A DNA stretch of 64,000 nt from Genypterus blacodes (taxonomy: Eukaryota). Position numbers and translations under genes: made by a program. Below are positions 21,801 through 27,156 of the stretch, piece after piece. Numbering within the stretch: position 1 is the first letter of the stretch; each line of letters starts with the position of its first letter. A model generated the notes under the pieces. It was not told the DNA's origin and searched no databases. It was given only the letters and a program-made list of their open reading frames with translations. The DNA is taken from contig NW_027466835.1 in NCBI RefSeq assembly GCF_046128005.1, positions 4,750,430 to 4,814,429 of the forward strand. Direction: 5' to 3'.

Positions 21801-23087
21801 CCAGAGATGCTGCAGGAGTCAGGAGGAGGGTACAGAGTGAGTGTGTTACTGCCCAGAGCAACAGCACAGACCTGCAGCGGGGATTTAGGTCAGACTCAGA
21901 GGAAGAAGAAGCCAAATGTCGGGGACTGGAAGGTTCTTCTTCCCCTCAGAACAGTTCCAGTGAGTGCATCCCATTCGCAGAGGAGGGCAACCTGACTATA
22001 AAACAGAGGCCTAAGGTTGGTGGACCGCCCAGAGCAGAGGCCGTGCTGGAGCCCCCAGAGAAAAGAGGAGCCAAGAACCAAGAGGTGCCTGAGTTTAACC
22101 TGAAAGAGTCGGACACAGTGAAGCGCAGACATAAAAACAAAGAGAAAGAGCAGGCAGGTGGCTCCCCCAGCAGGGAGGGAGCGGAGGAGTCGGGCAGCAG
22201 CAGGCCCGCATCAGAGAGCCAGGAGGAGGTCAGCCTCAGGATCATTGAGTCCAGTATGGAAAGACCACAGAGTCCTGCTGCAGCACCGCCCATCAAACCT
22301 CCTGTCTCCTCTAAACCCCCCACCATCGCCCCAAAACCAGTCCGCCAAAGTCTGGTGGCAGCACAAGGTAAGAGAAACGCATCTATGAATTCTGTCAGCA
22401 ATCTGGTTCTGTGTCCAATTTAAACGCCGTCACTGATCAATTCCAGTATTTGAACTCATTTTGCGTCTTGATTCTGTGCTCAGCTGTAGCAGCCTCTGCA
22501 GGTGTGACTGTCAGCGTGGTCCAAAGTGTGGCCTTTACCTCTCCATCAGCGCCATCCTACTACCCCCCCGCGCCGACCCCTCAGAGCCCGGCGCTGTCAG
22601 CAGCAAGGCCTCAGGTGTGTGTCGTGGGCCCGGGCCCCGTCCCCGAGTCCTCCTCCGGGACCCAGGTGGTGCAGCAAAGGCTGGATCAGACCAGCACGTC
22701 ACTGGAAGCTGCTCTGAAGGCCGTCGAGAGAAAACTCAAGTTGGAGGACAATTTTGACAGGTAAGAGGCCAAGATTCAGGATAACAGAGTTTCTCTTCTG
22801 TTGCTATATTGTATCTCTCCACCGCTGCTCCACATCAGCTACAGGAAGGAATGTAGAATGGACCCAGAACCACACAACACAATGTATGGAAAAATGTGAA
22901 AATTCCTCTAAATTAAGTTGGACTTAGATACGGATCATTTCACAGTATTTAAACTTCAGTATCATTATTTATATATTCTTCTCTCAGCAGCGGAGCAAAC
23001 ACAGTGAAGTCTGCCGGGACCATTCTGGATGACATCGGCAACATGTTCGATGACCTCGCAGACCAGCTGGATGCCATGTTGGACTGA
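6133..23087 (+). CDS. caskin2: CASKIN-family scaffold protein (CASK-interacting protein), most similar to CASKIN2. Partial: the 5' coding exons were not identified in the window.
   Basis: The domain order across the exons is ankyrin repeats, then an SH3 domain, then SAM1 and SAM2, then a long Ser/Pro-rich low-complexity exon, then the conserved CASKIN C-terminal domain.

GT-AG exons with consistent phases, approximate coordinates:
- Ankyrin repeats: 6133-6230 ([33 protein letters not shown]), 6788-6933 ([12 protein letters not shown]...[11 protein letters not shown]), 8531-8626 ([32 protein letters not shown]), 11098-11228 (VAQLLLSS...[16 protein letters not shown]), 13310-13418 ([36 protein letters not shown]), 13686-13794 ([36 protein letters not shown]).
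- SH3 domain: 14763-14857 and 15685-15802 ([24 protein letters not shown] / [33 protein letters not shown]).
- Linker exons: 16238-16411, 18986-19122, 19311-19374, 19777-19871 (...[13 protein letters not shown]).
- SAM1: 19999-20109 ([37 protein letters not shown]) and 20215-20316 ([16 protein letters not shown]...).
- SAM2: 20411-20549 ([47 protein letters not shown]).
- Large low-complexity exon: 20666-22367 (about 1.7 kb; [12 protein letters not shown]... Ser/Pro-rich).
- C-terminal exons: 22484-22760 (...[21 protein letters not shown]) and 22991-23087, ending ...[23 protein letters not shown] (the conserved CASKIN C-terminal domain). Confidence 0.85.
11990..12041. repeat. (GT)n microsatellite in a caskin2 intron
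   Basis: Direct reading. Similar shorter (GT)n/(CA)n tracts lie at about 853-896, 8635-8680, 15838-15886, 28868-28892 and 29222-29250. Confidence 0.85.
16150..16237. repeat. (CCT)n / pyrimidine tract forming the extended polypyrimidine region of a caskin2 exon acceptor (exon at 16238)
   Basis: The sequence cctcttcctcctcttcctcctcctcctcctcctcctccttctcctcctcctgttgtcctccctgtcttgccctctag precedes the exon. Confidence 0.8.
17990..18475. repeat. Two diverged copies of an about 140-bp interspersed or tandem repeat, about 350 bp apart, within a caskin2 intron
   Basis: Copy A (about 17990-18130) reads agcacagaggtcaaagagttctcctcattcctcaggagcttcatgaaaaccttttgggaggaaactttcagc...cacctttaggag. Copy B (about 18335-18475) reads agcacagaggagaactgcag...gagttctcctcaatcttcaggagctttcaggaaaacatgttgggaggaaactcttagc...gcctttaggag. 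The shared core is about 80% identical. Confidence 0.6.
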
Positions 23088-25184
23088 ATCTTCCCGCCCA
23101 CATGCCCACCCTCAACCTCAGGACGACAAACACATTAAGAGAAAAAGTGGAAGCGGAGGGACGGTTCTTCCCCCACTGCAGTAAAGACGAGCGTGTTGGT
23201 CCATAGATGGAGGAAACAACTGAAACTACAACAAACGCTTCTCATGGTGTTTCCCACCCTGACACACCAGCACTTACTCCATCTCCTCTGTGCTCAGTGA
23301 GGCTGATGAACCAGGATTCCTCTCTGCTGGGGATGCAGTTTCTGAAAATATTAATTGATCTCCTCAGATTCAATCCTCATCTTTTGCTCTCTTCCTGGTG
23401 ACCCAAAAATGTGTGTAGTAGCGTTCCATAACCAGTCCACTGTGAGAAACAAACACTATCATGATTATACACTAATATTCTACTAAAGAGCCGAAGCTCT
23501 GTCTGTCATACGACATTAATCACTGTGTCTGACCATTTCAAACTTTACCTTTGTCATTTTTAAAAGCTTATATCCATTTTTATACCAAGTGATTTTAGCC
23601 GTGTTTTGTCGATCTTCCTCGTGGCTCAGTGCCTGTGTGTGTGTCTGTGCTGTTAGGACTGACATTTTCTACATAAGTGCGTGTATCACTTCTAGGTTTA
23701 TGAAGCTACGTATGTAAAAACTGTAAAATGCGCAATGATTTTTATACAAAGGGAAGAAAACAAAGCATGATCAGCAGCTGTCTCGTAAACACTGCCTGTA
23801 TGGAGTTCATCCTTGTGTGTACAGTGATAAAGTATTCATTTTAATTTAGTCAAATTAGTATTTAAATTAGAGTTATCTAAATATGTATATTGTATACTAG
23901 AGGTATATACAGGAGCATATATACAACCAAAGTTCTTTGTACAGTTTTTCTTCAGTTTTTCCACCAACATTTCCTTTAAAAATGCAGGATCCTGATCTCT
24001 CAGCTTCTTTGCTTTTTGTAAAATGAATTGAAATGTTGAAAATATTATTTACTGTTCTTTGGAAACGGTTAAAGGTTTCCTCTTCTTGTCCAGGCTGCAT
24101 TGTATGGATCATCCCTCCATATTAGGCATGCAAATAAGTGTACCTTTCCAACACGTGTCATTTGTATACCTGTGATTGTGGACCCTGGTGTGTGTGTGGT
24201 TTGTCCTGTGAATGTGTTACTGGTAGCTCTGTGTGAGTGGGATCCTCTCTTTTTGGATTTCCTTTTACATGTGATGCTCAGGAAAAATCCTCCCCACGTG
24301 TTTCAAGGCTTTGGGTGAGATCCGATTGCAGACTGACTGACTGACTGACTGGATCTGTAACAACACCTTGGAGAAGAGCGATGCTGTGTGGATCGCTGCA
24401 TTTGTGCCGATATTCTGTGTTGACAATTTCCCATGTTGAAATTTAAGAAGCATTCATTTTGTCTTTTCTGGGGGGAAAACCTCTGAAATGATTAGAATGA
24501 TGATAAAAAAACTTTTGAAAACTGACCGGAATGTTACAGGACAATACTCGTCTACCCCCTGGTGTGTGTGAGGTGTGTGTCTGTGATGCATGTTGTCCCT
24601 TGTGACTGGGTTGCAGAGCGCTGTCTGTTATCTCTCTGGATGTTTTCCTGCCCTGTTTACGATTAAATATTTGCCCCCTATTACGCCGCTCACAGTGTCC
24701 AATCACAGTTGATCTCAGAGGCCTCGTGGTGACGAAGATCTTATCTTTTCTGAACGATCTCCACATGTTGATCACCAGGTTACACACACGAGTGAAAGAA
24801 CCTCAGGCAACTACAGACAAATCATGACCTAACTATCATAAGGTTCCGTTTTGTTTGAAAATGACTTCAGCACATAAACTTGTGATGAAAGAAAGCTTCA
24901 TGTTGGTCTTGTATTTTACAAATATATGGCTTTAATCTTTAAAAAATTCTTAAAAGTTGTAAAAGTTCAGCTAGATGGAGTAGCAAAATTAAGATTAGAT
25001 AAGATTATATGATCTAATCTGATATTCTGTCTATACTTTTAATACATTCTATAATCTATTAAAAAATGTATTAGTAATGTAATTCCCCAGTTCTTTACTC
25101 TTACATATAAAGCCACTTTTGGTTGTATGTTTATGTTGTGCTGTTCCACAGTCAGACACTAGGGGGCGCGCCTCTGTGAATCTA

Positions 25185-25814: not shown

Positions 25815-25990
25815 ATTCCAGCTCAGGGAGGGACGAGTCAGGAGCTTTGACCTCTGGCCCCGGAGAAACTGACCACGCGGACGAGTCCTCTACTTGTAGC
25901 ACCGCATTCTGAAATAAAACAATAGTAATCTGTAATCTGAATAAACTGAGTGTAATCATCAGAAATATTACTGTAAACATGATATCCCAG

Positions 25991-27156
25991 TTACCTGTAC
26001 ATCCTTGTTAGGCTCTGCGCTTTTGTTTCTTTTTCCGTTGCGGGGAAGTGATCTCTCTGGGCGGTGGCATCCTCACCAGGCGTCCTCTGTGGTTCCAGAC
26101 GGGAGAAGACTGTTCTGTCGACAGAGGCCGACATCAAGCTGGACGCTGCAGGTGTGCGAGCAGGGATCCGTCCTCTGCTGCCTAGGGCTGCGGTCACTGC
26201 CTTCCTGTAGATGACCTTTGACCCTTCCTCTGGTGTCCTTACTTTATTTTTCAAGATATAGTAAGACGGTGACAGAGGCGCCTCCTAGATCTGAACAAGA
26301 TCCTGCAGACTCATCAAGTCTCTGGGAAGACGTGTCCAAGTCTTTCGAGACGTCACTGTCCCGAGGAGGAGCAGCGACTGAAGCTCTTAACCAATTGAAC
26401 TTCACTATCTTTCTGTTGGCATCCATGGCAGAAACACTGATGTACCTGAACACAGAACGACGATGTGCTATAACTCACAAATGAACTCAAAATATGGGCT
26501 TAAAGGTTCAATTATATTTTTCCAACAATAATGTACTAAACTTTTGGCATAAAATACTTCTGTAAACTGACCAGTTATTTTCCACAGGAGTTTAACCCCG
26601 ACAGTCCAATTAGTTTTAGCGCAATGATTTCAGTTAAATTACAGCTGCAAGTGGAAGAAGCACGGCGTTTACGAACGTGTTCAGCGTGTTTAATGCTGCT
26701 TAAGCGGCTTTCTTTTGTTGTTCTAAGTTTATTAAAAATATTCATCTAGACAAGTTATTCAGGTTTTATTTTACGCCTTTAAACACATTTCAACGGCAAA
26801 CGGTGAGCCAACGTCGAGCTTCAAGGAAAGATTTGGATGTTTCGGAAGTCTTAGGGACCAATCGCTATTTCGTCGCTTTGTCTCAGGAGTTTGCGTGACA
26901 TTTGTTCATAATTGCTTTGGGCAACATGTCGCATTCTCTGCGTTGCTGCTGGGAAACCACGTGATTCGCTGAACTCTTTTCCGGGATGAGAGACAGTGGA
27001 CACGCCCACTCCCTTGTTTTTCCTTTCCTCGATTAAAATCCTGCAGCCCACATCTGCCAACAAGTCAGCACAGTTCTGCCAGGAGGACGCTGAGCTGTTT
27101 GGACTTTGTTTGCTGCCTGCTGAGTCCCCGAGGGTCGAGGTAACGACAATCTCCAC
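25991..27156 (-). CDS. Candidate upstream coding exons of the tatdn2-like gene (low-complexity N-terminal extension). Exon boundaries are unresolved.
   Basis: Minus-strand ORFs 25991-26254 and 26851-27156 are S/T/R/K-rich. They lie directly 5' of the TatD-motif exon and are co-oriented with it. The 26851-27156 ORF starts with an ATG (MEIVVTSTLGDSAGSKQSP...) next to an A/T-rich putative promoter region around 27400. Confidence 0.3.

Follow-up and report, generated by a model that had tools for sequence, protein, structure and literature searches.

The 64-kb stretch of the Genypterus blacodes genome analysed here (the window) contains, in the spacer between caskin2 and mvp, a sequence that is probably a lineage-specific, unprocessed copy of only the 5' part of tatdn2, duplicated and inserted at the DNA level and now decaying as a pseudogene. 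TATDN2 is a 3'-5' RNA nuclease, an R-loop-resolving member of the TatD family. The copied segment would have begun in the intron preceding the ATG exon and ended midway through exon 3; once placed between caskin2 and mvp, this 5' piece would have been decaying through frame-disrupting indels and deletions. Three explanations had originally been offered for the presence of only the start of a TatD domain at this locus, i.e. a gene nested around caskin2, a truncated fragment or pseudogene, and a short isoform. The second is supported by the present analysis, and is reinforced by disruptions of the upstream reading frames that had escaped the first reading of the sequence. The features on which this interpretation is based are listed in Table 1.

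Table 1. Coordinates of the tatdn2 fragment and its surroundings, numbered from the first base of the window
Feature	Position	Strand	Basis or comment
caskin2 3' UTR	23088..23994	+	conserved block 23517-23994; context, outside the tatdn2 fragment
210-codon ORF	25182..25814	-	distal tatdn2 exon 3, then unrelated tail and stop; translation, protein search, tblastn, profile
End of homology (breakpoint)	25221..25229	-	blastn and tblastn alignments, nine loci or proteins; nhmmer
Exon 3 start	25735..25916	-	acceptor ...ttttatttcag/AAT; DSSLPELEYV block 25857-25810
Exon 2 homolog (...LSPSYYILKNKVRTPEEGSKVIYRKAVTAALG...)	25998..26281	-	donor cag/gtaact; blastn-level DNA identity and tblastn
Exon 1 homolog, conserved start MDANRKIVKFNW	26244..26426	-	block spacing compared with orthologs, tblastn
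Acceptor-like intron end before ATG exon	26427..26500	-	similarity to orthologs fades here
CpG-rich patch	26401..27600		observed/expected 0.88-1.26, window baseline 0.51

The TatD reading frame and its breakpoint

At the place originally indicated, the minus strand carries an ORF of 210 aa with a TATDN2-type start of a TatD domain, comprising a disordered region followed by the first ~55 residues of the domain, the N-terminal HxH metal-binding motif (FIDxHCH; FIDSHCHLDMLYGK at about 25391-25350) included. Fourteen fish TatD proteins matched the ORF with E values of 8.5e-31 to 6e-18, and a 16-protein vertebrate TATDN2 profile matched the window (E 3e-27) solely at profile positions 100-213 of 425. 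Judged from these sequence comparisons, the TATDN2 homology of the ORF is real and not due to chance. The 173 homologous codons are still open, with all indels among them in-frame; past the homology, 16 unrelated codons (AATHMSVNESALFG and so on) lead to a TAG stop at 25184-25182, the product terminating in ...FIDSHCHLDMLYGKVDYRGSFGYFQYHYSSSFPSEIRGCVANFYNPRLMVKEAMWAATHMSVNESALFG.

Alignments to nine loci or proteins (blastn, tblastn) all stop at 25221-25227, with the TGG codon (the W of ...KEAMW) at 25229-25227 and the last common base at about 25226. Relative to every ortholog compared this breakpoint lies mid-exon, and in five other fish loci the orthologous exon runs 62 codons further (EGLLAEDMVWGAFGCHPHF...AFGEMGLDY...RQKE/gt). 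Searching with a nucleotide profile (nhmmer) recovered nothing of the missing 186 nt of exon after 25226, and by the same measure a weak similarity past the break in a forced MAFFT alignment was noise. The best tblastn match to the rest of the TatD domain, over the whole 64 kb and six frames, reached only E about 0.5, and profile positions 214-425 of 425 of the vertebrate TATDN2 profile were unmatched across the window. The earlier statement that the remainder of the domain is missing from the window is therefore borne out by tblastn, protein profile and nucleotide profile, and these six-frame searches of the 64 kb also revealed none of the small TatD exons that might have been overlooked at 23.1-25.2 kb. 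The end of caskin2 was placed correctly (23085-23087), and the region at 23-25 kb is AT-rich, as had been noted (measured GC 0.41). A GTAAAC suggested as the splice donor of the fragment is not a conserved splice site: it lies at 25208-25203, 18 nt past the end of homology, and matches no splice site of the orthologous exon.

A full TatD_DNase domain (PF01026) was defined as about 253 profile positions, or about 266 residues, above the Pfam gathering threshold. Two orthologs (P0136 and P0135) spanned profile positions 1-253 (266 residues) with E about 5e-58 and 5e-57; the window ORF falls short of a full-length domain and had no Pfam match with the cutoff relaxed to E<=1. About 55 of roughly 266 TatD residues (~21% of PF01026) are retained, with ~79% missing. 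The catalytic acidic residues of human TATDN2 are E593, E705 and D707, corresponding to E91, E201 and D203 of E. coli TatD (PMC10711561), and the equivalents of all three are absent from the stub. Sequence alignment places the first in AFGEMGLDY, 40-45 codons past the break, and neither this block nor the later exons expected to hold the other two was found in the 64-kb window. With a truncated domain, no E/E/D ligands, and upstream exons that are collapsed and out of frame, the fragment, as sequenced, cannot make a TatD nuclease.

Upstream exons, frame damage and rate of change

The fragment resembles TATDN2 in its start peptide MDANRKIVKFNW, the exon 2 motif RTPEEGSKVIYRKAV, the DSSLPELEYV and FALPLHS blocks, the first 55 TatD residues (with FIDSHCHLDMLYGK and SSFP..GC..F.NP), the order of its exons and the presence of at least one intron, but differs in the residues and domain portion it lacks, in having its upstream exons out of frame, and in its location between caskin2 and mvp rather than between vhl and ghrelin. 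Over positions 26256-26176, the exon 2 homolog has 81-83% DNA identity to three orthologous loci (L001, L002, L003). One intron is present, between exons 2 and 3, and an acceptor is kept before the ATG exon; because the former is retained, the fragment is not a retrocopy. Similarity to the orthologs fades at 26427..26500, and the copy can thus be traced in the 5' direction to approximately this point. Upstream of the window ATG exon, no tatdn2 promoter or 5' UTR blocks common with orthologs were found, although the orthologs share such blocks among themselves.

The exon 1 frame reads directly into exon 2 sequence, where TAA 26246-26244 ends it. Some ~350 nt that are usually present (exon 1 end, intron 1, exon 2 start) are missing here, and the exon 1 and exon 2 blocks are only 169 nt apart, the same distance being 524 nt in L001 and, counted from the gene-model start, about 498 nt in Lates. 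In exon 3, the frame of the DSSLPELEYV block differs from that of the TatD ORF and closes at TAG 25737-25735, and the DSSLP and FID blocks are separated by 466 nt, compared with 522-546 nt, in frame, in L001, L003 and L004. The net offset of exon 3 is -80 nt, with a stop in the entry frame. No unbroken frame connects the ATG exon through the N-terminal region to the TatD domain, with assembly indels as a caveat. Since the Lates assembly has a +1 offset within the same exon 3, frame changes of a single base may, taken by themselves, reflect assembly noise; the case for a pseudogene therefore leans on the net change of -80 nt and on the collapse of exons 1 and 2.

Evidence from substitution rates was less clear. 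The fragment deviates at 4 of 23 highly conserved columns, compared with 0-2 in most orthologs, and its dN is about twice the ortholog-to-ortholog dN. Its branch omega is about 0.3, versus 0.04-0.08, in an estimate based on 55 codons with saturated dS. The window-to-Lates branch ratio was 1.3-1.5 for caskin2 and 2.3-2.5 for the stub, the latter based on 55 residues only. Since the caskin2 control shows that the whole lineage is long-branched, this line of evidence was downgraded, and once the long branch is counted the data hint at best at accelerated evolution of the fragment.

Genomic setting and mode of insertion

Intact tatdn2 genes are located elsewhere. Orthologs L001, L008 and L009 sit in a conserved vhl - tatdn2 - ghrelin - ccdc174 block, which was seen in complete order (vhl - tatdn2 - ghrelin/motilin - ccdc174) in Mastacembelus, with vhl upstream of tatdn2 in Lates, and with ghrelin/motilin and ccdc174 downstream in the salmonid-type contig L001. 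The arrangement in fish is matched by that in humans, in which TATDN2 adjoins GHRL (PMC2621237). The intact percomorph gene at this conserved locus is compact (about 2-4 kb). The copy in the window lies outside the block, its neighbours being caskin2 and mvp and not vhl or ghrelin. In Lates, Sebastes, Etheostoma and Oryzias, caskin2 adjoins mvp with no TATDN2-like sequence between them, and none was found in the cichlid Neolamprologus over the whole annotated caskin2 range plus 10 kb on each side. Lates thus carries both an intact tatdn2 and an empty caskin2-mvp spacer, and the spacer in the window has the same length as that of Lates (6.8 kb).

Loss of tatdn2 in medaka leads to infertility (PMC12709183). 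Because Lates has both loci, and because medaka needs the gene for fertility, we infer that an intact tatdn2 would have been kept next to vhl and ghrelin in Genypterus blacodes, and that the fragment would have originated by duplication and not by the moving of a sole copy. The fragment combines homology and intron positions with truncation and lesions, as expected for a duplicated pseudogene. Like other unprocessed pseudogenes, it reproduces part of its parent at a new genomic locus, an intron included, is cut at an arbitrary intra-exon point and bears frame-disrupting indels and deletions; it differs from them in that its flanks showed neither repeats nor transposon signatures, and in that its parent copy is deduced.

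No transposon, target-site duplication or repeat was found at the fragment edges; repeats nearby were limited to (CA)n microsatellites, and the flanking ORFs had no Pfam matches. Neither insertion boundary can be mapped, since the spacer DNA of species this distant cannot be aligned. The CpG-rich patch overlapping the 5' edge may be a promoter-like island, but as a sign of a copied promoter it is ambiguous, because the caskin2-mvp spacers of other species contain CpG-rich patches too. Helitron-type gene-fragment capture, in which a small segment from inside a host gene is carried to an unrelated intergenic site, offers only a lead. An GGCGCGCC palindrome followed by CTAG/T occurs at 25171-25158 on the minus strand, about 55 nt past the break, but it is too short and too near CTAG for a typical Helitron 3' hairpin, and in the window there was no 5' terminus, no other copies, and no transposase or Rep domain.

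Alternative explanations and implications

The fragment could be expressed and functional, either as a non-coding RNA transcribed under the control of the CpG-rich 5' patch and reading antisense into the caskin2 3' UTR, or as a short protein starting at Met-25814, whose 210 aa would represent part of the disordered region and the first barrel strand. We regard this as unlikely. In its favor, the 210-codon frame is open, the HxH motif is kept, branch omega is about 0.3 rather than near 1, and the N-terminal disordered region mediates R-loop binding in the human protein (PMC10711561). The locus could also still be transcribed, given a CpG observed/expected ratio of 0.9-1.26 at 26.4-27.6 kb and ATTAAA signals 140 and 250 nt past the minus-strand stop. 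Canonical poly(A) hexamers are present at 24662 and 25058 on the plus strand and at 25043 and 24936 on the minus strand, and overlap of the 3' UTRs of caskin2 and the fragment, which had been proposed, is possible. The omega value, however, carries the limits given above, the CpG patch has no similarity to tatdn2 promoters, and a protein database search turned up no homolog sharing the truncated C-terminus. The short isoform ending in ...ESALFG, as originally suggested, is conceivable, but the conserved ATG exon and the exon 3 start are out of frame with that ORF, whose product would moreover be without the acidic catalytic residues (all three) and most of the domain. A more elaborate version, which we consider a long shot, is a young, still-expressed truncated paralog under a germline-unmethylated CpG island at 26.4-27.6 kb, giving rise to a caskin2-antisense RNA or to a 210-aa N-terminal protein that would perhaps bind R-loops without cutting them and modulate the real enzyme.

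It is also quite improbable that the fragment is the sole tatdn2 of the species, its 5' half having been moved here by a rearrangement that destroyed the gene, with loss now under way. No intact copy exists within the 64-kb window, and the kept intron sequence and ATG exon are what would be expected of a relocated genomic piece. However, caskin2 and mvp flank the piece just as they flank the empty percomorph spacers, so that an insertion is required; the breakpoint of a simple inversion or translocation is not compatible with this arrangement. TATDN2 has been kept in vertebrates ranging from sharks to mammals, several percomorphs among them, and the infertility of medaka without tatdn2 (PMC12709183) makes a sole truncated copy unlikely.

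A misjoining of real tatdn2 reads into the caskin2-mvp spacer during assembly would explain the abrupt, mid-exon break, and frame-changing indels are typical of uncorrected long-read assemblies, Lates having one. Such an artefact is nevertheless very unlikely, as it needs two chimeric joins in a spacer of normal length, both of them without runs of N or repeats, and the piece is not a clean copy, showing about 0.7 kb of internal deletions, the exon 1-2 collapse and substitutions at conserved sites.

Scarcely credible is a gene nested around caskin2, with exon 3 spliced from about 25209 over a huge caskin2-containing intron to TatD exons outside: GT dinucleotides do follow soon after the homology end at 25210 and 25208 (GTGTAA, GTAAAC), and the far side of caskin2 lies beyond the window, but homology breaks off within an exon that the five orthologous loci carry in one piece, which would require its 62 further codons to have turned into a separate distant exon, 25 kb downstream on the minus strand are without TatD sequence, the cichlid caskin2 locus has nothing TATDN2-like throughout, intact percomorph tatdn2 is compact and located elsewhere, and the upstream frame disruptions stay unexplained by nesting.

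As a probable decaying partial duplicate, the locus should be annotated neither as tatdn2 nor as a nested gene spanning caskin2, and automated pipelines could readily produce a bogus 'TATDN2-like' protein from its 210-codon ORF. The fragment provides a small datable marker, i.e. a lineage-specific insertion in a spacer otherwise conserved across percomorphs. If it were transcribed or translated, it would be a modest example of a new gene born from part of a germline genome-stability gene.

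A tatdn2 copy broken within an exon

The minus strand between caskin2 and mvp carries a TATDN2-type start of a TatD domain, as the original prediction had held: the 210-codon ORF matches fish TatD proteins with E values of 8.5e-31 to 6e-18, and a profile built from 16 vertebrate TATDN2 proteins with an E value of 3e-27, so the observed ORF is real. The remainder of the domain, which had been reported missing downstream on that strand, is indeed absent by tblastn, protein profile and nucleotide profile. Elsewhere in the 64 kb, no tblastn hit improved on E about 0.5 with fish proteins and a human sequence as queries, and the TATDN2 profile matched the window only at 25889-25185 (profile positions 100-213 of 425), with no match in the window to positions 214-425.

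All protein and DNA alignments to the window end at 25221-25227, directly after the W of KEAMW, and the same exon runs 62 more codons (EGLLAEDMVWGAFGCHPHF...AVAFGEMGLDYSHKNS..RQKE followed by gt) in five orthologous loci, i.e., L001 (a salmonid-type contig), L003, L004, L008 (Lates) and L009 (Mastacembelus). GTAAAC at 25208-25203, proposed earlier as the tatdn2 donor, sits 18 nt into unrelated sequence, and because the orthologous exon continues beyond the point where homology ends, it does not qualify as one. The break at 25226 is a rearrangement or deletion edge within the exon, not an exon end. With the orthologous exon continuous past the break and no TatD remainder in 64 kb, a gene nested around caskin2, its remaining exons lying beyond a very large intron, finds no support. 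Continued similarity past the break, hinted at by a forced alignment, was rejected as noise, since a nucleotide profile covering the 186 nt that exon 3 lacks had no match past 25226 or anywhere else in the window. At the fragment edges, we found no repeats, tandem duplications or transposon domains; a palindrome with adjoining CCCTAG is loosely reminiscent of a Helitron 3' end, with atypical geometry and no further copies of the element in the window.

Features of the caskin2-mvp interval in the window
Feature	Position	Strand	Remarks
Large caskin2 exon	20684-22420	+	compared with caskin-2 of Lates, Sebastes and Seriola
caskin2 end	23085-23087	+	Caskin-tail peptide precedes stop
Conserved non-coding block, caskin2 3' UTR	23517-23994	+	72-89% identity to other fish
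Canonical poly(A) hexamers	24662, 25058	+	
Canonical poly(A) hexamers	25043, 24936	-	
Palindrome GGCGCGCC, then CCCTAG followed by T	25171-25158	-	about 55 nt past homology break
tatdn2-fragment ORF	25814-25182	-	210 codons; ends FIDSHCHLDMLYGK...SSSFPSEIRGCVANFYNPRLMVKEAMW then AATHMSVNESALFG*
Exon 3 start	acceptor at 25916	-	
Intron, exon 2 to exon 3		-	~80 nt, retained
Exon 2 (RTPEEGSKVIYRKAV)	26281-25998	-	tatdn2 homology
ATG exon (MDANRKIVKFNW)	ATG at 26426	-	tatdn2 homology
CpG-rich, island-like patch	26401-27600		5' end of tatdn2 fragment; observed/expected 0.88-1.26, window baseline 0.51
(CA)n/(TG)n microsatellites	28870-28895, 29227-29249		spacer, upstream of mvp
mvp start	about 29.86-30.03 kb	+	

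Exon structure and lesions of the copy

Along the fragment, the ATG exon, exon 2, the short intron and exon 3 (which holds the TatD domain start) follow in order, and this exon series with its retained intron identifies a genomic copy and rules out a retrocopy origin. The reading as a truncated fragment or pseudogene is supported by the mid-exon break, a collapse between exons 1 and 2, and a frame change in exon 3. In the window, 169 nt separate the exon 1 block from the exon 2 block; L001 has 524 nt here, and Lates about 498 nt (from the gene-model start). The collapse falls at 26290-26244, and the exon 1 frame hits a TAA at 26246-26244. Within exon 3, the frame changes at about 25745-25700: the entry frame stops at 25737-25735, and the DSSLPELEYV and TatD blocks occupy different frames at a spacing of 466 nt, whereas L001, L003 and L004 have them in frame, 522-546 nt apart; truncation at 25226 is the third lesion. 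In Lates, the spacing of conserved blocks in exon 3 is offset by +1 (547 vs 546 nt) between the N-terminal region and the TatD domain, either through an assembly indel or through a genuine frameshift, and single-base frame changes alone are therefore weak evidence. The -80 nt difference and the exon 1-2 collapse are of a larger scale.

In Lates japonicus (L008, 8311-11683), tatdn2 is split into two gene models of 426 and 259 aa. In Mastacembelus armatus (L009, 7763-10040), the ATG exon is present and the exon 2 and early exon 3 blocks are not detectable; an ORF resembling a reverse transcriptase tail, with no Pfam match, lies directly upstream of the TatD exon, and the annotated protein begins only 15 residues ahead of the TatD domain.

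Host spacer and home locus

In Lates, Sebastes, Etheostoma and Oryzias javanicus, mvp lies 6.8-9.7 kb past caskin2. Neither tblastn nor the protein profile found TATDN2-like sequence at these four loci or in Neolamprologus (the full annotated extent of caskin2 and 10 kb to either side), and Lates combines an empty spacer with an intact tatdn2 next to vhl. Among the lineages sampled, the fragment therefore occurs only in its own, and with caskin2 and mvp still arranged as usual around it, it must be an insertion into a conserved spacer. The two microsatellites are the only sequences of the 23-30 kb interval that recur elsewhere in the window. The large caskin2 exon matches caskin-2 of Lates, Sebastes and Seriola at 76-80% identity, a level that puts the source among percomorphs, without a close database relative. 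Compared across the species, these three are mutually 89-91% identical in this exon, versus 78-80% between the window and each of them, and the window is also more distant from salmonid and gadid outgroups than they are. This noticeably long branch marks a fast-evolving or poorly sampled lineage.

The AT-rich stretch of about 2 kb between caskin2 and the ORF, described earlier as UTR-like and without TatD frames, is TatD-free, and its conserved block assigns about 0.9 kb of it to caskin2. This block, which probably serves as a regulatory UTR element, shares 72% identity with Lates across about 470 nt, with a core matching Sebastes at 89% (23845-23994) and Neolamprologus at 86% (23845-23950), and it lies 0.4-0.9 kb past the caskin2 stop in the window versus 1.2-3.6 kb in other species. 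Antisense overlap of the caskin2 UTR with a putative transcript of the fragment is possible. The CpG-rich patch and mvp, separated by 2.3 kb, stand head-to-head. A comparable patch precedes the ATG exon at intact tatdn2 loci, and CpG-rich stretches also occur in some other species' caskin2-mvp spacers; the window patch has no sequence in common with tatdn2 promoter regions of other fish, though these share blocks mutually.

Gene order in Mastacembelus is vhl, tatdn2 (+), a motilin/ghrelin-family gene (-) and ccdc174; vhl is upstream of tatdn2 in Lates. In L001, a 13.5 kb contig of ENA metagenome assembly ERZ13706696 that in fact consists of fish host DNA, tatdn2 is accompanied by ghrelin and a DUF4078/ccdc174 gene; the ghrelin peptide reads GSSFLSPSQKPQVR, the salmonid form. 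Human TATDN2 likewise adjoins GHRL (PMC2621237). The vhl-ghrelin locus is the ancestral tatdn2 position.

Function and constraint

Intact orthologs have a 266-residue TatD_DNase domain (PF01026, E about 1e-57); the window keeps about 55 TatD residues (the stub), and its ORF has no Pfam match. Human TATDN2 activity requires E593, E705 and partly D707 (PMC10711561). By alignment, the first catalytic residue falls past the break, in AFGEMGLDY, and later exons should carry the other two; the stub cannot be a nuclease. A short isoform, another earlier suggestion, may exist but is unlikely to give a working protein. In fish, tatdn2 is expressed in germ cells. Loss of tatdn2 costs medaka their primordial germ cells and their fertility (PMC12709183), so the stub is unlikely to be the sole copy in this species; we infer that Genypterus blacodes has an intact tatdn2 at the vhl-ghrelin locus.

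Among 23 columns with at least 90% conservation across sharks to mammals, the stub deviates at 4 (L to V, F to I, I to V and C to Y) and most orthologs at 0-2. Its dN to any ortholog is 0.20-0.25 versus 0.06-0.14 between orthologs, and its branch omega in a three-taxon split is about 0.3 versus 0.04-0.08. The window/Lates branch ratio is 1.3-1.5 for caskin2 (salmonid outgroup) versus 2.3-2.5 for the stub, a gene-specific excess of only about 1.7-fold over 55 residues, which is compatible with relaxed constraint and no proof of it. The fragment is most likely a decaying partial duplicate of tatdn2 restricted to this lineage, an object of an ordinary kind whose main importance is for correct annotation.
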